This document shows positions 8,542-13,689 of a DNA stretch of 19,757 nt, one piece after another; the stretch's first letter is position 1; each line of letters begins with the position of its first letter. The DNA comes from a virus (lineage: Duplodnaviria; Heunggongvirae; Uroviricota; Caudoviricetes), in IMG/VR virus record IMGVR_UViG_2734482784_000002, positions 1 through 19,757 of that record; one strand, 5' to 3'. The notes beneath the pieces were generated by a model. That model was not told the origin of the DNA, ran no database searches, and was given only the letters and a program-made list of their open reading frames with translations. Made by a program: the position numbers and the translations under genes.

Positions 8542-9035
8542 TGCTGACCCCACAAACAGATTTCACGCTCAATCTCACGACGAGTCATGAGACCTTTCCA
8601 TTGCTTACCGCCAGCATATGTCCAGCGACGTAGCTGATCACATGCGCCTTTGATATCGCCCTGGTTTATTTTGCGAAGAAGCGTCGATGTTCTGAAATTG
8701 CCAGCACCCACGTTGTAAACGAATGAGTAAAGAGCGCCGCGCGTTGTTTCCGGTATATCGACTTTGATGTACGGGTTAATTTGTCTGGCGACAGTGGCAA
8801 GGTCTTTATTCAAGAGTGCATTGCATTCTGCTTTGGTATACGTTTTACCGAGCATGATGTCTTTTCCTGTATGCCCGTGACATACAGTCCATACACCAAC
8901 AATATCTTTGTATGGTATGTAGCTGACACCTTCCAGACCATCGTTACCACTTGGGCCAGTGATTAACACCGATGCTATAGCAATTGCTCCGCCACCAATA
9001 GCAGCAGCAACGGCTTTTCGTAATGATGGAGGCAT
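8538..9035 (-). CDS. SAR endolysin (phage 21 R-type lysozyme)
   Basis: 165-aa protein with an N-terminal signal-anchor-release segment ([18 protein letters not shown]) and a lysozyme catalytic region; matches the recalled P21 endolysin. Its start overlaps the holin stop (TAATG). Confidence 0.85.
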
Positions 9036-9250
9036 TATTCACCTCTCGCAGCCTTGCGCTTATCTTCTTTAATCTTGAAATAAAGGTTTGTCAGGTACGT
9101 CAGCAGGCCAAAAACCAGACTACCCAGCACACCGATTGCAGCCCACTGTGACGGAGTTACTCTATCGAGCAACTGTAAAAACCAGTAGCCAGCACTGCCT
9201 GCGGAGGTGCCATAGGCGACACCCGTTGTTAACTTATCCATGGATTTCAT
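9035..9250 (-). CDS. Pinholin, S21-type, with dual-start motif
   Basis: 71 aa [71 protein letters not shown] with two TM segments and Met1/Met4 (antiholin/holin) starts. The track ORF 9035..9394 is an upstream over-extension. Confidence 0.85.
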
Positions 9251-9520
9251 AACCCCCACCTCGCAGATGCGGGCCTGTGTAATGGAAACAAAAAATGGCC
9301 ACCAGCGGCCCGTAAAAAACACCCCGTCAAAAGCACCGGCATCCGCAGATGCCCTTTGCGTGGCGTTATTTGATGCGCGCCAGATGTGGCGCAAAGAAAT
9401 GAAATAAGACTTATCGAAAATTAAGGTTAATTTGATGATTTAAACCACTTCTGAAGCTTAGTAGTATGAACATGTCCCCAGAAGGGGGCCAATACTTATG
9501 AGTCTTCATGGACTTTGTCC

Positions 9521-9553
9521 CGCGGCGTTAATCCGACGGCCGCGCTTTTTTTT
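9521..9553 (+). terminator. Plus-orientation intrinsic terminator
   Basis: cgcggc (9521..9526) pairs with gccgcg (9539..9544), followed by c and eight T (9546..9553). Confidence 0.4.
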
Positions 9554-9588
9554 GCGCCATATTCATCGCTAACTTACATGGCATTGCC

Positions 9589-9623
9589 ACACGGGCATTA
9601 TCAGTGTCCGTGTTTCTTTTTTT
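9589..9623 (+). terminator. Plus-orientation intrinsic terminator
   Basis: Stem acacgg (9589..9594) pairs with ccgtgt (9608..9613), extendable with wobble pairs, followed by ttcttttttt (9614..9623). Confidence 0.45.
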
Positions 9624-9635
9624 AGGGTTCAGAAT

Positions 9636-9660
9636 AAAAAAAACCGCCCGGTGGAGGCGG
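9636..9660 (-). terminator. Minus-orientation intrinsic terminator between tRNA cluster and lysis genes (tR'-like)
   Basis: Minus-strand RNA CCGCC-UCCACCG-GGCGG followed by eight U (plus-strand a-run 9636..9643, stem 9644..9660). Confidence 0.55.
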
Positions 9661-9936
9661 TAAAGGATGTATTTCCAGGTTTTGCTTAGTATATGATTAA
9701 TCTCAATGTCATTTTTAGCGATGTTTACAACATCGGGATGGCACATCACCGGCCCTGCAAGGAAATACAAAATCTCCACCGATAATGCACCATTCTGCTG
9801 CCGTAAAAAAATCAGCACTGAGGCTACACCTGGCCTCAAATCATAGCCAGAGAACAGAATGCTTTTTCGAAACAACCTGCTCCCACGTAATAAAAATACG
9901 CCAGTGCTGCAATACAATAAGGCTTATTTCAAATGC

Positions 9937-10011
<75 letters not shown>

Positions 10012-10014
10012 ATA

Positions 10015-10090
<76 letters not shown>

Positions 10091-10095
10091 ACAGA

Positions 10096-10169
10096 ACCGC
10101 CACCGAGGTATCGAACCTCACACCTACCACTTAAATGATGGTCGGCTCTTCCCGATGAGCAGATGGCGG
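10096..10169 (-). ncRNA. tRNA-like element with non-canonical anticodon arm (possible pseudo-tRNA or atypical tRNA)
   Basis: Reverse complement CCGCCATCTGCTCATCGGGAAGAGCCGACCATCATTTAAGTGGTAGGTGTGAGGTTCGATACCTCGGTGGCGGT has acceptor, D-arm and T-arm (TTCGATA loop) pairings. The best anticodon arm (ACCAT/GTGGT, loop CATTTAA) puts A at position 33, needs an extra nucleotide, and no CCA is encoded. Confidence 0.35.
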
Positions 10170-10237
10170 TGTTCCCTTAATGGGATAGCTGTATTCAGTA
10201 ATCCGTTATTCGAATACACCATCGAAGGAACAAGCGC

Positions 10238-10262
10238 ATTATATACATTCACGATTCGTGTT
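10238..10262 (-). promoter_or_regulatory. Candidate minus-strand promoter (-10 TATAAT) with an abutting palindromic operator-like site
   Basis: Plus-strand attata at 10238..10243 is TATAAT on the minus strand. Palindrome TTCACGA-T-TCGTGTT at 10248..10262 lies 4 nt upstream of it. Positioned between the Q stop and the tRNA cluster, pointing at the tRNAs and lysis genes. Confidence 0.4.
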
Positions 10263-10302
10263 ATTAGCTAATTGCGCACAACACAGCTTCATTTAACGAA
10301 AT

Positions 10303-10340
10303 GCCCCCCAGAAACAACAAAACCCGCTCAATGGCGGGTT
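10303..10340 (-). terminator. Minus-orientation terminator ~85 nt downstream of the Q-like gene
   Basis: Minus-strand RNA ACCCGC-CAUUGA-GCGGGU (10322..10339) followed by UUUUGUUGUUU. Confidence 0.45.
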
Positions 10341-10423
10341 CTGGTAAAGTTCATGCGCTTGGTTCGCCTCGCGATACAGCTTTGCGAAGCATACCGGAAT
10401 TGAAGCAATTTATGCGTAAAAAA

Positions 10424-10966
10424 TCAAGCTATTTTTTGAGCAAATGATTCTCGCATGGGAATATACAGGGCATATTCAGCAACGGCTAACCAATTAGCAA
10501 TTCGCTTTTCGCATGTGCTAAAACACCACTCTGGGTGTGCATCATTTAGCAATTCAGCCATTTTGCGTTTGGTCATCCCCCGCCCCTCATACCGTTGCCG
10601 AAGGACGCTAATCAATCCTGGATGCTCTGCCAGCACCTCACTTATGACCCGATCAATACATAACGCCTCTGCATCAGTACAATGCGCCAGCCAGCTCTTT
10701 TGCTTACCGTTAATCATATCCCGCAAAAAAGCCTCAAGTTCAGACTTGTTCAGGCCTGCTTTTTTCATCCTCCGGAGCGCCTCGTTAATTGCCGTTTTTG
10801 TCAGCTTTTTAGAGCCCAACAACTGGTTGAACATATTCCCCGTCTTACCGCCGCCAATATACGACCAGCGCCCCCACATGCGCAGTTTTCCCTGAATCCA
10901 GACACTTTCCAGCGTGGTGAGACGAAGGTGTTCCCCGCTTTTACCTGTATTTGTTGGGTAAATCAT
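10424..10966 (-). CDS. Late-gene antiterminator Q-like protein
   Basis: 180-aa ORF in the canonical Q position between the nin-region gene and the tRNA/lysis block. Contains a Cys cluster (CTDAEALC...CFSTC) and its start overlaps the upstream stop by 4 nt. Call is by position and general resemblance, not exact recall. Confidence 0.55.
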   Translation of the reverse strand: MIYPTNTGKSGEHLRLTTLESVWIQGKLRMWGRWSYIGGGKTGNMFNQLLGSKKLTKTAINEALRRMKKAGLNKSELEAFLRDMINGKQKSWLAHCTDAEALCIDRVISEVLAEHPGLISVLRQRYEGRGMTKRKMAELLNDAHPEWCFSTCEKRIANWLAVAEYALYIPMRESFAQKIA

Positions 10967-11250
10967 AAATGACCTTTCTTTCTCCAGATTTCTTGTGTGC
11001 GAAAACCCCCTTCAGCATGCATCAGGCGCAATTCTTCTTTGGTGTAATCGCTGGTTTTTACCCGCCCGTCGATTAGATCGTGGCATGAGCTACAGGCTAT
11101 CGCCGCCTGCATATCGTGTGGTTTTGTCGCTGTTCCGCACGTCCCCGCCAGCCTGTAATGCGCCAGCACAGAGGTTTCGGGATTGTGATTGCAGTAGCCA
11201 GGGATTCTGATCTGGCACATCTGGCCTTTAGCCGCTTTACGTAAGTCCAC
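10963..11250 (-). CDS. YbcO-like nin-region protein (DUF1364, putative metal-binding nuclease)
   Basis: DLRKAAKGQMCQIRIPGYCNHNPETSVLAHYRLAGTCGTATKPHDMQAAIACSSCHD... resembles DLP12 YbcO as recalled. The track start at 11283 is TTG; GTG at 11250 gives an N-terminus (M)DLRKAAKG closer to the family. Either start overlaps the Cro-like ORF. Confidence 0.6.
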   Translation of the reverse strand: MDLRKAAKGQMCQIRIPGYCNHNPETSVLAHYRLAGTCGTATKPHDMQAAIACSSCHDLIDGRVKTSDYTKEELRLMHAEGGFRTQEIWRKKGHL

Positions 11251-11422
11251 AATGAGCGCCAAGCCGATTAAGGGTGGAAACAATTTTTCTGCACTCCTCT
11301 AGCCCAGGGGTACGAAAGTTTGCTTCGTAATTTGCTAGTCGGCTTTGTATCCACCCTAACTGAACAGCGAGTTGTCTTTGAGACAGGCCAAGCTGTTTTC
11401 GATATGTTGAAATTTTGTTCAT
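11237..11422 (-). CDS. Cro-like small HTH (XRE-family) regulator
   Basis: 61 aa with a helix-turn-helix (LGLSQRQLAVQLGWIQSRLANYE). ATG at 11422 with GGAGG 7 nt upstream. Divergent from the repressor-like gene across a 96-bp palindrome-rich spacer; occupies the ydaS position of Rac. Confidence 0.6.
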   Translation of the reverse strand: MNKISTYRKQLGLSQRQLAVQLGWIQSRLANYEANFRTPGLEECRKIVSTLNRLGAHCGLT

Positions 11423-11446
11423 TGAAAACCTCCGACGACAATTTTA

Positions 11447-11461
11447 AACACATCCTGTGTT
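11447..11461. promoter_or_regulatory. Operator-like palindrome AACACA-TCC-TGTGTT
   Basis: Perfect 6-3-6 inverted repeat in the divergent intergenic region. It lies between a TTGACC -35-like hexamer (minus strand, complement of 11466..11471) and a TTTAAA -10-like element reading toward the Cro-like gene. Confidence 0.45.
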
Positions 11462-11492
11462 ATGCGGTCAAGCTGTTTTGTGTTTTATGTGA

Positions 11493-11507
11493 ATCACGAT
11501 TCGTGAT
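11493..11507. promoter_or_regulatory. Operator-like palindrome ATCACGA-T-TCGTGAT
   Basis: Perfect 7-1-7 inverted repeat 12 nt upstream of the repressor-like gene ATG. Same core as the sites at 10248 and 12023. Confidence 0.5.
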
Positions 11508-11518
11508 ACAAGGATGCA

Positions 11519-11941
11519 ATGGAAAAAGAAAACGAAAAAATTGCCGCTAGTAGGCTCAATGACAAAATTGCAATGCGTCTTAAAGAGCGCAGGCAGAAGC
11601 TTGGTTTATCGCAAGGAAAACTTGCTGAAATCTGCGGATGGACGCAATCGCGTATAGGTAACTATGAGGCGGGCAGCAGAAATGTTGGAGTGCATGATGC
11701 TGTCGTACTGGGAAAGGCACTGGGCATATCTCCTCCTGAACTCCTGTTTGGAGAAAAAGACTCTTCTGAATTGTGGTTAAATGAATCCCAACGAAAACTT
11801 CTAGAGTTGTTTAACCAGCTACCGGGCTCAGAACAACAACGAATGATTGAGCTATTTGAAGTTCGGCTAAAAGAAATCGACGAGTATGTAGAAAAATATT
11901 TGAGAGGCAGGCTTAAAGATCCCCCCCCACCGGAGCAATGA
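11519..11941 (+). CDS. Immunity repressor-like HTH protein (RacR position), no peptidase domain evident
   Basis: 140 aa with an N-terminal XRE-type HTH (LGLSQGKLAEICGWTQSRIGNYE) and a ~65-aa C-terminal tail with no Ser/Lys autocleavage motif that I can see. AAGGA Shine-Dalgarno; strong terminator follows. Confidence 0.65.
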   Translation: MEKENEKIAASRLNDKIAMRLKERRQKLGLSQGKLAEICGWTQSRIGNYEAGSRNVGVHDAVVLGKALGISPPELLFGEKDSSELWLNESQRKLLELFNQLPGSEQQRMIELFEVRLKEIDEYVEKYLRGRLKDPPPPEQ

Positions 11942-11968
11942 TCTTGCTATCACAGTAATATGCCTATC

Positions 11969-11992
11969 AGCCCGCTATCAGCGGGCTTTTTT
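11969..11992 (+). terminator. Intrinsic terminator after the repressor-like gene
   Basis: Perfect 8-bp stem agcccgct/agcgggct with a 3-nt loop (11969..11987), followed by six T. Confidence 0.7.
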
Positions 11993-12022
11993 GTATCATC
12001 ATCATATGACACCTCACCACAA

Positions 12023-12065
12023 AACACAATTCGTGTTGACACGGAAAATCATTTTGTGTTTAATA
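12023..12065 (+). promoter_or_regulatory. Candidate promoter (-35 TTGACA, 17-bp spacer, -10 TTTAAT) with overlapping operator-like site
   Basis: Near-palindrome AACACAA-T-TCGTGTT at 12023..12037 overlaps TTGACA (12036..12041); TTTAAT at 12059..12064. Lies ~180 nt upstream of the ydaG-like gene. Confidence 0.45.
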
Positions 12066-12240
12066 AACATATCCAAACAACGCCCCACCAGAGAACGGCA
12101 GGACAATACCTCGAGTTATCCAGCCACTGAACAGGGCTAAGTAGCCAGCCTGAGGCATACGAACATGACGGCAGTTGTTGATTGATACAAAGCGCAGTAG
12201 ATAAAACGTTCCGCCACCCAGCGTTAAGGGGAGAGATAAG

Positions 12241-12375
12241 ATGGTGCATTATGAAGTAGTTCAGTATTTGATGGATTGTTGCGGTATCACTTACAGCCAG
12301 GCTGTGCAGGCTTTACGCAACAACGACTGGGATCTCTGGCAGGCAGAAGTCGCTATACGTAGCAACAAGATGTGA
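12241..12375 (+). CDS. ydaG: YdaG-like small protein (44 aa)
   Basis: MVHYEVVQYLMDCCGITYSQAVQALRNNDWDLWQAEVAIRSNKM with a GGGGAGAG Shine-Dalgarno upstream. Recognised from memory as the small Rac protein next to racR. Below the ORF-track cutoff. Confidence 0.55.
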   Translation: MVHYEVVQYLMDCCGITYSQAVQALRNNDWDLWQAEVAIRSNKM

Positions 12376-13467: not shown

Positions 13468-13689
13468 ATGATTGCACATCACTGCGGAACTGATGAAATA
13501 CCACGTCAGTGTGTGACTCCTGGTGATTATGTTCTTCATAACGGCCGGACATATATTGCCTCGGCAAACAATATTAAAAAGCGAAAACTTTATATTCGTA
13601 ACCTGACTACAAAAACATGCATTTCTGACTGCATGATTAAAGTCTTCCTCGGTCGTGATGGTTTACCTGTAAAGGCGGAGTCATGGTGA
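13468..13689 (+). CDS. kilR: KilR, FtsZ-targeting cell-division inhibitor
   Basis: 73 aa [72 protein letters not shown] recognised as Rac KilR. GGAG 6 nt upstream of the ATG at 13468. Confidence 0.85.

Follow-up and report, generated by a model that had tools for sequence, protein, structure and literature searches.

Short prophage repressors without a peptidase domain have been known since DicA. DicA, from the Qin prophage of E. coli K-12, has no RecA-cleavage site, and mitomycin C does not induce it; it is switched off by a small antirepressor whose gene lies kilobases away, beside hok (PMC10448788). The identity of the DicA antirepressor as Rem has been shown experimentally (PMC10448788). 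In Salmonella, the Gifsy repressors GtgR, GfoR and GfhR are uncleaved proteins of ~140 aa that act with the antirepressors GftA, GfoA and GfhA, the antirepressor being a small GUG-start ORF (PMC3121763). The gftA gene, which has a GUG start, lies between dinI and irsA, the antirepressor slot in Gifsy prophages (PMC3121763). For the DicA/Gifsy GtgR class, both non-cleavage and antirepressor-mediated induction have been demonstrated by experiment (PMC3121763; PMC10448788). Peptidase-less repressors have also been recorded for several prophages of O157 Sakai that are not inducible by mitomycin C (PMC2669165), and RacR, another short repressor of this kind, is essential in K-12 (PMC5700373, PMC5700377). 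The PaaR2/YdaS/YdaT module of CP-933P (O157:H7) combines a short, peptidase-less CI-like repressor with a 97-bp divergent spacer and several operators bound by both the repressor and Cro (PMC8630535); elsewhere CP-933P has a further regulated promoter, its YdaT is CII-like, and the system is bistable (PMC8630535).

The locus described here lies in a stretch of 19,757 nucleotides of viral DNA (the window). We read it, with a probability of about 0.75, as the immunity region of a Rac-family lambdoid prophage that has been shortened by a deletion, has its PR joined to Q, and is governed by a non-cleavable repressor. The prophage is a defective, Rac-type E. coli prophage integrated at ttcA. The genes beside the repressor follow the Rac order (int, xis, RalR/RalA, recT, recE, kilR, sieB, ydaF, ydaG), and relatives carry the same immunity module at ttcA. 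The module combines a short repressor of the DicA/Gifsy type with an HTH_3 Cro and YdaT; this immunity type is present in 162 of 5426 complete E. coli genomes and has relatives in Salmonella, Serratia and Klebsiella. The switch is of an ordinary kind, and its state is unusual and crippled. An RNA family search of the whole window returned two tRNAs and RalA, and nothing in or adjoining the switch, whose features are the following.

11237..11422, minus strand: truncated Cro-like gene, 61 aa (native form 80 aa)
11447..11461: putative operator OR1, AACACATCCTGTGTT, inside the spacer of the PR-like promoter; position and CAC/GTG arms conserved in 10 loci from 4 genera
11471-11466 and 11448-11441, minus strand: PR-like promoter, -35 TTGACC and -10 TAAAAT/TTTAAA, with OR1 between them
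11470..11484: candidate half-operator, right arm GTGTT only, centre exactly 23 bp from those of OR1 and OR3; read from the sequence
11493..11507: putative operator OR3, ATCACGATTCGTGAT, directly 5' of the repressor SD; conserved in all relatives and invariant among E. coli loci
11510-11514: repressor SD, AAGGA
11519..11941, plus strand: repressor gene, 140 aa, HTH_3 at residues 21-75 and a conserved all-helical C-terminal domain at ~85-135
11969..11987, plus strand: intrinsic terminator after the repressor gene, 8-bp stem with 6 GC pairs, then a T-run; conserved in relatives
12023..12064, plus strand: OL/PL region, comprising OL1, -35, half-operator and -10; hexamers read from the sequence
12023-12037: putative operator OL1, AACACAATTCGTGTT, the third conserved operator, overlapping the PL-like promoter 3' of the repressor gene
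12036-12041 and 12059-12064, plus strand: PL-like hexamers, -35 TTGACA and -10 TTTAAT
12046-12060: candidate OL half-operator (OL2), AAATCATTTTGTGTT, centre 23 bp from that of OL1

The start codons of the 61-aa ORF (minus strand) and the 140-aa ORF (plus strand) are exactly 96 bp apart (11423-11518), and the spacer between them holds two perfect inverted repeats, AACACA-TCC-TGTGTT at 11447-11461 and ATCACGA-T-TCGTGAT at 11493-11507, in agreement with the first-pass annotation of this DNA. When a palindrome is defined by arms of at least 6 and a loop of at most 3, at least one appears in 8.8% and at least two in 1.5% of 5000 spacer shuffles, and in 7.3% and 2.1%, respectively, of random 96-mers drawn from the window. 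More telling than these statistics are the excess of one pattern and its conserved placement across genera. Both repeats match the 15-bp pattern WWCAC-N5-GTGWW, which is found four times in the window against 0.33 expected, and three sites keep their positions in 10 loci from four genera (E. coli, Salmonella, Serratia and Klebsiella), with CAC/GTG constant, the flanks lineage-specific and the centres free. It is on this comparative evidence that the sites are assigned as operators, which the repressor would bind. The sequence at 11470-11484 appears to be a half-operator whose arm follows lineage, the retained arm being GTGTT in E. coli and Salmonella and GTGAA in Klebsiella. Judged from its position, OR3 probably overlaps the start of the repressor transcript.

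The operator set reaches beyond 11423-11518: OL1 lies ~600 bp from OR1 in every relative (10 loci), and the genes 3' of PL are ydaG, ydaF, kilR (13468-13689), recE and recT, so that the repressor would also guard the kilR/recET operon. A strict sigma-70 promoter scan of 10900-12300 passed no candidate. The relaxed scan recovered PR alone, which needs either a weak -10 or a spacer of 19 nt; for the repressor's own promoter it gave nothing convincing, so the position of the latter is one we infer. No LexA box (CTGT-N8-ACAG, at most 1 mismatch) occurs near the switch, and the 11 matches in the entire window are within chance.

In all intact relatives, cro (73-84 aa) is followed by ydaT and then by the replication genes. 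Compared with strain EcPNK006, ~7.3 kb of this region is missing from the window. When aligned to the related locus L001, window positions 9526-11244 correspond to L001 1-1694 and 11240-14612 to L001 9001-12373, the two segments meeting at a short, imperfect microhomology, CGT(C)AA. The lost DNA comprises ydaT, ydaU/ydaV-type replication genes, DUF1627, DUF977, cargo genes, hok, a 70-aa ORF and DUF1367/irsA, together with the last 20 codons of the Cro-like gene, which include its conserved fifth helix. The exact 61-aa protein is found on at least 101 E. coli contigs, and thus the deletion allele is real; GCA_044018155.1 is one carrier, and six loci share the architecture with 99.9-100% identity. 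The 27-mer across the junction is absent from GTDB representative genomes, and none of the complete RefSeq E. coli genomes spans it. As the lineage carrying the deletion is nearly clonal, selection for the arrangement is unsupported. The compactness of the switch and its direct lead to Q, both part of its initial description, are products of the deletion, whereas the spacer, the palindromes and the two HTH genes stand as described. The stretch from the junction through the late region is laid out as follows.

11240..11244: deletion junction, ~7.3 kb missing relative to EcPNK006
10963..11250, minus strand: ybcO (DUF1364), 5'-clipped, Pfam YbcO 3.8e-44; native ATG and two codons lost
10424..10966, minus strand: Q-like antiterminator (DUF1133), Pfam DUF1133 3.6e-107; phrog_753, anti-termination protein Q-like
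8077..10343, minus strand: late region, with terminator, late-promoter-like box, tRNAs, terminators, holin, lysozyme and Rz
10343-10318, minus strand: terminator after Q
10243-10238, minus strand: late-promoter-like TATAAT
Within 8077..10343, minus strand: tRNA-Thr and tRNA-Gly
9839-9818 and 9661-9643, minus strand: late-region terminators
9035-9250, minus strand: holin, full-length Pfam match
8538-9035, minus strand: lysozyme, full-length Pfam match
8077-8553, minus strand: Rz, full-length Pfam match

No terminator is predicted between PR and Q, and with all three lysis genes full-length, the earlier view that the Cro-like side leads to Q and an intact lysis cassette is borne out. At the junction, the native ybcO start MVNLRK now reads ...IVDLRK, an in-frame GTG (11248-11250) being a possible start, and the start of Q overlaps the ybcO stop (ATGA). 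Because the ybcO start codon is lost and Q is translationally overlapped with ybcO, the output of Q after derepression is uncertain. The late promoter region also contains an operator-like 15-mer (10248-10262) with a core identical to that of OR3 at 12/12 positions; on a highly speculative reading, it would give the repressor or Cro a second, direct lock on late transcription. As an integral fourth operator this site was rejected, since it does not travel with this immunity type: it occurs beside RacR immunity (PK8568) and beside the DicA-like type (13P484A), the APEC O1, O157 and O111 loci lack it although they bear the immunity described here, and only 6-7 of ~38 genomes with that late-promoter module have this immunity.

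A locus in this condition could be an inert relic, that is, a decaying prophage with weak or silent promoters whose repressor could be lost without consequence. The prophage has undergone at least two large deletions and lacks replication genes, no terminase or portal genes are found between Rz and the head genes in the window, and the lost ybcO start codon, the empty strict promoter scan and the near-clonal distribution of the allele point the same way. However, the repressor and the operators are intact, as are the PL hexamers, Q, holin, lysozyme and kilR, all of them matching or closely resembling their counterparts in intact relatives, and, by analogy, RacR and DicA of the defective Rac and Qin prophages are required for normal K-12 growth (PMC5700373, PMC5700377, PMC5917428). 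We consider an inert relic unlikely.

The Cro-like ORF is a genuine HTH_3 gene (Pfam E 3e-10, residues 6-52) with an SD (CCTCC, 11429-11433 on the plus strand), but it is a truncated 80-aa gene and not, as the first-pass annotation implied, a naturally small Cro. Up to residue 60, its sequence is that of the 80-aa WP_001033914-type protein found in intact relatives, and residue 61 and the stop are supplied by ybcO-side DNA. Homologues in relatives (73-84 aa) carry a conserved LDDVFP motif at residues 60-65 that is missing here, and the AF2 model of the intact 80-aa form places helix 5 at residues 60-63. The recognition helices of the Cro-like protein (GWIQSRLANYE) and the repressor (GWTQSRIGNYE) are nearly identical, the proteins being 45% identical over 42 aa, which suggests that the two probably share their operators. 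The truncated protein retains helices 1-4 along with the recognition helix and may thus keep some activity; since the truncation falls inside the conserved fifth helix, a working two-way switch is doubtful. Many Cro proteins comprise only 60-75 aa, and the full HTH_3 match, the repressor-like recognition helix, the good SD and the PR-like promoter would suit an intact, naturally compact CI/Cro bistable switch, with the 61 aa making up a complete Cro able to lock the lytic state. Such a switch is improbable given that every relative is longer and carries LDDVFP, that the ORF is the 80-aa form up to residue 60 and ends in ybcO-derived DNA, that helix 5 lies at the point of truncation, and that the 7.3-kb deletion explains the layout.

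The repressor matches Pfam HTH_3 (E 5.5e-13), and its C-terminal part has no Pfam match. An S24 peptidase was sought by Pfam, NCBIfam, PDB sequence/profile and fold searches and is absent by all of them, and the C-terminal 55 residues form a conserved helical hairpin instead of a beta-rich S24 fold, which upholds the proposal that the tail has no LexA/CI-type peptidase. Its PDB sequence and profile matches cover the HTH only. The AF2 model (pLDDT 86.5) shows helices at 89-99 and 103-133 and no strands, and Foldseek matched it to HTH domains only, with no LexA/CI C-terminal fold. The linker (residues 78-88) has no Ala-Gly or Cys-Gly cleavage site; the sole Ala-Gly, A51-G52, is located inside the HTH (NYEAGSRN, between helices 3 and 4). 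Homologues numbered 152, and among the 120 listed none has PF00717 and lengths range from 91 to 202 aa (most 122-143). The missing S24 domain predicts that the repressor would be unable to autocleave. It aligns to almost the full length of the NCBIfam DicA subfamily NF007257 (57.6 bits against a curated cut-off of 101 bits; E 1.1e-15, model 4-131 of 135) and is 30% identical to K-12 DicA (residues 14-131, E 2e-15), and is thus a homologue but not an orthologue of DicA. The C-terminal domain is 50% identical to that of the SPN3UB repressor over 50 aa (E 6e-15) and 46% identical to that of GtgR over 35 aa (E 1e-6). A length of 140 aa, an HTH linked to the shared helical C-domain, the cI position divergent from a cro-type gene, and conserved putative operators at PR and PL suggest that the protein belongs to the DicA/Gifsy GtgR non-cleavable class. 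Identity with the repressor of Sakai Sp10, which occupies the same attachment site, was rejected: the repressor and Cro differ, there is no BLAST match, and operators do not match.

Alternatively, the repressor might be inactivated by regulated proteolysis, either by an ImmA/IrrE-type metalloprotease or by Lon/ClpXP acting on the Pro-rich tail. Among the fold matches is DdrO, an XRE repressor that the metalloprotease IrrE cleaves, one Serratia relative (L012) has a Peptidase_M78/HTH gene, and the tail (...KDPPPPEQ) is disordered (pLDDT 58). In contrast, neither the scanned ORFs of the window nor the annotated relatives from E. coli include an M78/ImmA-type gene, the helical C-terminal domain is strongly conserved in 27 aligned homologues whereas the extreme tail is not, and the family precedent is stoichiometric antirepression (PMC3121763, PMC10448788). 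Regulated proteolysis is, in our estimate, very unlikely.

By that precedent, a non-cleavable repressor would be inactivated through binding of a small antirepressor whose gene lies outside the immunity region, directly upstream of irsA/DUF1367. Immediately upstream of irsA/DUF1367, intact relatives carry a 70-aa GUG-start ORF (phrog_1813; WP_000411311-type in EcPNK006 and APEC O1), and this slot is deleted in the window. The ORF accompanies the immunity in four E. coli loci and in Serratia, and it is found in 173 genomes, compared with 162 for the immunity module. It is homologous to gp59 of SPN3UB, flanked by a dinI with a LexA box and by a homologue of irsA; strain 13P484A has a Rem homologue alongside DicA/DicC-type immunity. 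Neither the 70-aa ORF in E. coli relatives nor rem has a LexA box upstream, and in these relatives dinI is absent before the slot gene. That the 70-aa ORF might be homologous to Rem or GftA was considered and rejected (no BLASTP match; hhalign probability 0.4%). In the window, tblastn gave no match for the 70-aa ORF and no significant match for Rem (E 0.26 and 0.74). With no significant similarity to GftA or Rem and no LexA box, its candidacy as antirepressor rests on position and co-occurrence.

The proposed mechanism is as follows. The 140-aa repressor, as a dimer, most likely binds the 15-bp WWCAC-N5-GTGWW operators. On OR1, inside PR, it would shut off rightward transcription; OR3, over the repressor transcript start, would serve autoregulation or shut-off by Cro; and OL1, together with a half-site, would cover the PL-like -35 and silence ydaG-ydaF-kilR-recET. 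The deletion would have left a pair of promoters locked by the repressor, not a full two-way switch, with PR reading via cro' and 'ybcO into Q. Once repression was lost, Q would drive late transcription and lysis by holin, lysozyme and Rz, together with KilR from PL, and neither phage replication nor packaging would follow. In this strain, derepression would require a trans-acting antirepressor from another prophage or loss of the repressor. That the repressor is needed to prevent host lysis, as was suggested at the outset, is plausible. Highly speculative, and to our minds probably wrong by a wide measure, is the further idea that the deletion created a repressor-guarded suicide circuit in which a trans-acting Gifsy/DicA-type antirepressor sets off rapid, phage-free lysis of an abortive-infection-like, altruistic kind; were it true, the trigger would be an SOS-induced co-resident prophage or an incoming phage, and the circuit would possibly be maintained in this E. 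coli lineage. A toxin-antitoxin-like module made up of two genes of the HTH antitoxin type, an idea once put forward for RacR/YdaS/YdaT, can be practically dismissed, for although NCBIfam finds weak similarity to the HipB, MqsA, HigA and Y4mF antitoxin HTH and the neighbour gene in relatives is annotated as a toxin YdaT family protein, the matches are generic to the HTH and far below curated cut-offs (e.g., 34.3 vs 71.65 bits), the window has neither ydaT nor an adjoining toxin gene, YdaT is now viewed as a CII-like regulator (PMC5917428, PMC8630535, PMC9986795), and the PR/PL operators and lambdoid gene order fit an immunity region.

For one widespread immunity type, the analysis adds a predicted operator consensus, WWCAC-N5-GTGWW, whose three positions are conserved. 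It also predicts that phrog_1813, a family of unknown function, supplies the cognate antirepressor of this type, and it describes a naturally occurring deletion allele in which PR is short-circuited to Q. Because of this short circuit, the repressor gene is predicted to be conditionally essential in carrier strains, which bears on the deletion or knock-down of prophage repressors. The overall importance is modest.

Among known systems, 434 and P22 share with the locus a repressor and Cro with homologous HTH motifs and near-identical recognition helices, and operators ~23 bp apart; the HTH fold of the repressor matches 434 and P22 C2. Their repressors, however, carry an S24 autocleavage domain, whereas this one does not. 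PaaR2, compared by published features, has a leaderless mRNA and is the first gene of a TA operon, whereas the repressor here has an SD and its own terminator, and the PaaR2 operator is an 18-bp GTTTAGTAA-type repeat instead of the 15-bp WWCAC-N5-GTGWW. K-12 Rac belongs to the same prophage family, has the same attachment site and shares the neighbours ydaG, ydaF, sieB, kilR, recET, ralR and intR, and the ydaT of intact relatives is 94% identical to that of K-12. The immunity proteins show no significant similarity to RacR (BLASTP E 0.98) or YdaS (no match), so that a different immunity specificity has been swapped into the same slot; moreover, ydaT is the main source of toxicity in K-12 Rac, whereas the window lacks it. 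With Gifsy and SPN3UB, the locus has the C-terminal repressor domain in common, and the 70-aa ORF of its relatives occupies the matching slot, but the HTH domains (those of the SPN3UB repressor and GtgR) and the operators are unrelated. DicA/DicC of Qin differs in that the Cro here is unrelated to DicC and the intergenic sequences are dissimilar, in its left operon (dicF/dicB vs kilR/recET), and in its slot gene, Rem in Qin and phrog_1813 in the window's relatives. In return, DicA resembles the repressor in size (135 vs 140 aa), in its N-terminal HTH and homologous helical C-domain (LF-x-LP-x-x-EQ), and in its divergent small Cro-type gene, and both regions have a DUF1391 gene downstream.

The switch lies in a Rac-family lambdoid prophage whose relatives are attached at ttcA. 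To the right of the repressor gene follow ydaG, ydaF (DUF1391), sieB, kilR (13468-13689), ydaE, recE, recT, ralR with the RalA antitoxin RNA, xis and int, and to the left of the Cro-like gene ybcO (DUF1364), a DUF1133 Q-like antiterminator gene (Q), tRNA-Thr, tRNA-Gly, holin, lysozyme, Rz, a trkG-type transporter and head/tail genes. The first-pass annotation described a divergent pair of HTH genes around a spacer with two perfect palindromes, and the ORF coordinates, HTH_3 matches and palindromes bear this out. The start codons are separated by 96 bp, and shuffled or random 96-mers contain two perfect palindromes of such kind in about 1.5-2% of cases.

Features of the switch region (OR1, OR3 and OL1, predicted operators)
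11237-11422, minus strand: Cro-like ORF, 61 aa, HTH_3
11447-11461: OR1, spacer palindrome AACACA-TCC-TGTGTT, between -35 TTGACC and -10 TAAAAT/TTTAAA on the minus strand
11470-11484 and 12046-12060: half-sites with the GTGTT arm only, exactly 23 bp from their neighbours
11493-11507: OR3, spacer palindrome ATCACGA-T-TCGTGAT, adjoining the repressor SD
11519-11941, plus strand: repressor ORF, 140 aa, HTH_3
11969-11987: strong terminator closing the repressor gene
12023-12037: OL1, overlapping a consensus -35 TTGACA (12036-12041), with TTTAAT 17 nt further

Two other parts of the prophage deserve mention. The intact type I toxin-antitoxin pair of Rac, the RalR (Lar-family) toxin gene with its antisense RalA RNA (Rfam RF02694, 225 bits), occupies 17791-18201. 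At the opposite end, positions 1-732 encode a ZnuA-family ORF, related prophages share their tail-tube module with the window only from ~1240 on, and the stretch 1-1240 matches thousands of E. coli records, plasmids included; sequence comparison suggests a rearrangement or a mobile element at this left end.

By alignment with its relatives, the 61-aa Cro-like gene is the stump of an 80-aa gene. When the window was compared with 5426 complete E. coli genomes by megablast, the immunity region was matched only from 11240 rightwards and ybcO-Q only up to ~11253, and no genome spanned both matches. EcPNK006, APEC O1, and O157:H7 and O111:H11 strains carry the same repressor (139 aa in EcPNK006, 97.8% identical to the window's) opposite an 80-aa HTH gene, followed in the intact order by ydaT, ydaU/ydaV-type replication genes, DUF1627, DUF977, variable cargo, hok, a 70-aa ORF, DUF1367, DUF1364 and DUF1133. 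Pairwise alignment places the deletion junction at 11240-11244, with only a few bases of microhomology and ~7.3 kb missing relative to EcPNK006. Residues 1-60 of the 61-aa product are identical to the 80-aa protein and its end derives from ybcO, which has lost its ATG and two codons. Cro-like homologues from E. coli, Salmonella, Serratia and Klebsiella measure 73-84 aa and have an LDDVFP motif at residues 60-65 in common. AF2 models the intact protein (pLDDT 73) as five helices (3-10, 15-22, 26-35, 42-54 and 60-63) with a disordered tail; helix 5 is therefore removed by the deletion, and any activity of the truncated Cro is uncertain. At least 101 contigs carry exactly this 61-aa sequence, and six fetched loci show the layout cro'-ybcO-Q-lysis at ttcA (cro' being the truncated gene), 99.9-100% identical to the window. 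The deletion allele is no assembly artefact.

The repressor is, by homology, a member of the DicA/Gifsy class. Pfam and NCBIfam find only an HTH (residues 21-75); the curated DicA model aligns over nearly the full length, scoring 57.6 bits, below its cut-off of 101. BLASTP gives 30% identity to K-12 DicA (residues 14-131, E 2e-15) and no significant similarity to RacR. Searching 5.8 billion proteins returned 152 homologues with listed lengths of 91-202 aa, most 122-143, and an S24 domain is absent from all 120 listed. The AF2 model (pLDDT 86.5) is all helix, with a hairpin formed by 89-99 and 103-133, and PDB sequence, profile and Foldseek searches match HTH domains only (C.AhdI, P22 C2, 434, Stl, DdrO). 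Given these domain, homologue and fold searches, the earlier proposal that the protein lacks S24 and cannot cleave itself is as well supported as sequence and fold permit. Its C-terminal segment, ...W-L-x3-Q/H-R/K-K-x-L-x-LF-x-QLP-x2-EQ-x-R-M-I-x-LF-x2-RLKEIDEYVEKYLRGR, is more conserved across 27 aligned homologues than much of the HTH. This domain is shared with the repressors of Salmonella phage SPN3UB (50% over 50 residues, E 6e-15) and Gifsy-2 (GtgR; 46% over 35 residues, E 1e-6), the HTH domains of which are unrelated to that of the window's protein.

Both palindromes match the pattern WWCAC-N5-GTGWW, which occurs four times in the window against 0.33 expected from shuffles and at the same three places in ten loci of four genera: two sites whose centres are 46-48 bp apart within the divergent spacer, and a third ~80 bp beyond the repressor stop codon. 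Across the ten loci the CAC and GTG arms are invariant and the five central bases vary freely, while the flanks differ by lineage (AACAC/GTGTT and ATCAC/GTGAT in E. coli and Salmonella, TTCAC/GTGAA in Klebsiella). We infer that the repressor binds at these predicted operators. The Cro-like protein is 45% identical to it with nearly the same recognition helix, and both probably read these sites, by analogy with phage 434. Promoter scans around the switch placed no promoter for the repressor itself. A 14-nt direct repeat, GGYCAAGCTGTTTT, has copies 80 bp apart at 11386-11399, within the cro' ORF, and 11466-11479, where it spans the -35 of PR (the promoter toward cro'-ybcO-Q) and the beginning of the middle half-operator; this may be a chance repeat.

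The fourth match, TTCACGATTCGTGTT (10248-10262), lies between the post-Q terminator and the late-promoter TATAAT, just upstream of the latter. A core of 12 bases matches OR3 at 11494-11505 exactly (estimated chance ~0.002). The site also accompanies RacR immunity in PK8568 and DicA-like immunity in 13P484A, and it is absent from the APEC O1, O157 and O111 loci, though these have the same immunity type as the window (a short DicA/Gifsy-type repressor with an HTH_3 Cro). That immunity type occurs in only 6-7 of ~38 genomes with the late-promoter module. This distribution rules out the site as a travelling part of the immunity type. It instead tracks the Q allele and late-promoter module, all Q alleles that accompany the site being at least 94% identical, and it may be a Q-binding element, a recombination relic or a real extra operator. 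Its ligand may be Q, the repressor, Cro or none.

How such a repressor might be relieved is suggested by its relatives. Gifsy repressors are not cleaved; small antirepressors, with genes located between dinI and irsA, bind them instead, and gftA has a GUG start codon (Lemire et al., PMC3121763). Rem, encoded beside hokD in Qin, derepresses the DicA-controlled dicBp, and mitomycin C gives no induction (Ragunathan and Vanderpool, PMC10448788). IrsA belongs to the DUF1367 family, the Gifsy-2 and SPN3UB homologues being 54% identical to the EcPNK006 protein, and the small ORF just upstream of DUF1367 differs by immunity type: gftA in Gifsy-2, rem in Qin, and a Rem homologue (59% identical) in the Rac-like prophage of 13P484A, where the repressor is of DicA type (56%) and the Cro of DicC type (59%). 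The four intact E. coli loci of the window's immunity type all have a GUG-start ORF of 70 aa in this slot (phrog_1813, function unknown), and the Serratia locus has a 34%-identical homologue there.

phrog_1813 GUG-start ORFs, 70-79 aa, immediately upstream of DUF1367/irsA
L001 (EcPNK006), 2374-2586
L002 (intact relative), 3109-3321
L008 (intact relative), 4155-4367
L009 (intact relative), 2949-3161
L012 (Serratia relative), 519-758

Among complete E. coli genomes, 173 have the ORF and 162 have this immunity module. It has no significant similarity to GftA or Rem, and no LexA box precedes it in the E. coli relatives; it is 32% identical to SPN3UB gp59 (pairwise E 2e-12). The gene for gp59 is flanked on one side by a dinI gene with a perfect LexA box in front and on the other by an irsA homologue, in the phage whose repressor shares the window repressor's C-terminal domain. 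Slot position, co-occurrence with the immunity type and homology to gp59 thus make phrog_1813 a candidate family of cognate antirepressors. In the window the ORF was lost with the ~7.3-kb deletion: tblastn gives no match to it, and for Rem only non-significant ones. The cargo region of the Serratia relative, with a 65%-identical repressor, also contains a 362-aa HTH + Peptidase_M78 (ImmA/IrrE-type) gene (L012 1041-2129) absent from the E. coli relatives.

Downstream of PR, no intrinsic terminator is predicted up to the end of Q.

Features beyond Q
10343-10318: terminator
10243-10238: TATAAT, followed by two tRNAs
9839-9818 and 9661-9643: terminators, followed by an intact holin-lysozyme-Rz set
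5230-8553, Rz-to-head-gene interval: a trkG-type K+ transporter (6482-7957), a ParB_N ORF (5721-6344) and an overlapping DUF6651 ORF (5230-5922) only

Because the path to Q is free of predicted terminators and the lysis set intact, loss of repression should quickly yield Q, then late transcription and lysis, with KilR supplied from PL, the predicted promoter downstream of the repressor gene. Q output is uncertain, as the Q start overlaps the stop of ybcO (ATGA, 10963-10966), whose own start codon is lost. The junction also made an in-frame GTG (11248-11250), situated 9-11 nt ahead of the stop codon of cro'. From it ybcO translation could start anew two codons ahead of the native Leu4, and Q translation may hinge on this accidental restart. 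No phage would be expected, since the replication genes are deleted and the stretch of the window from Rz to the head genes has neither a terminase nor a portal gene. The corresponding interval of 13P484A (L006 1466-7470) holds small and large terminase, portal and minor head genes, and the comparison points to a second deletion that took the packaging genes. The suggestion of the first-pass annotation that the repressor may keep the host from lysing is reasonable; RacR of K-12, which is essential, offers a parallel (PMC5700373, PMC5700377, PMC5917428).

Several known systems likewise place a short repressor lacking a peptidase at the cI position of a defective lambdoid prophage, namely DicA/DicC with Rem, the Gifsy repressors with their antirepressors, PaaR2/YdaS/YdaT and RacR/YdaS/YdaT. 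Four Sakai prophages carry peptidase-less repressors, and mitomycin C failed to induce three (Asadulghani et al., PMC2669165). Sp10 of O157:H7 Sakai uses the same ttcA attachment site but has a different, unrelated 139-aa repressor (L025 14352-15105), in whose C-terminal region a similar L-x-ELP-x-SE motif can be seen by eye; one prophage backbone has received different immunity specificities. As Sp10 carries a different repressor, the window's particular immunity specificity appears uncharacterised. The significance of the switch is modest: the kind of repressor is already known, and the window's form is a deletion derivative.
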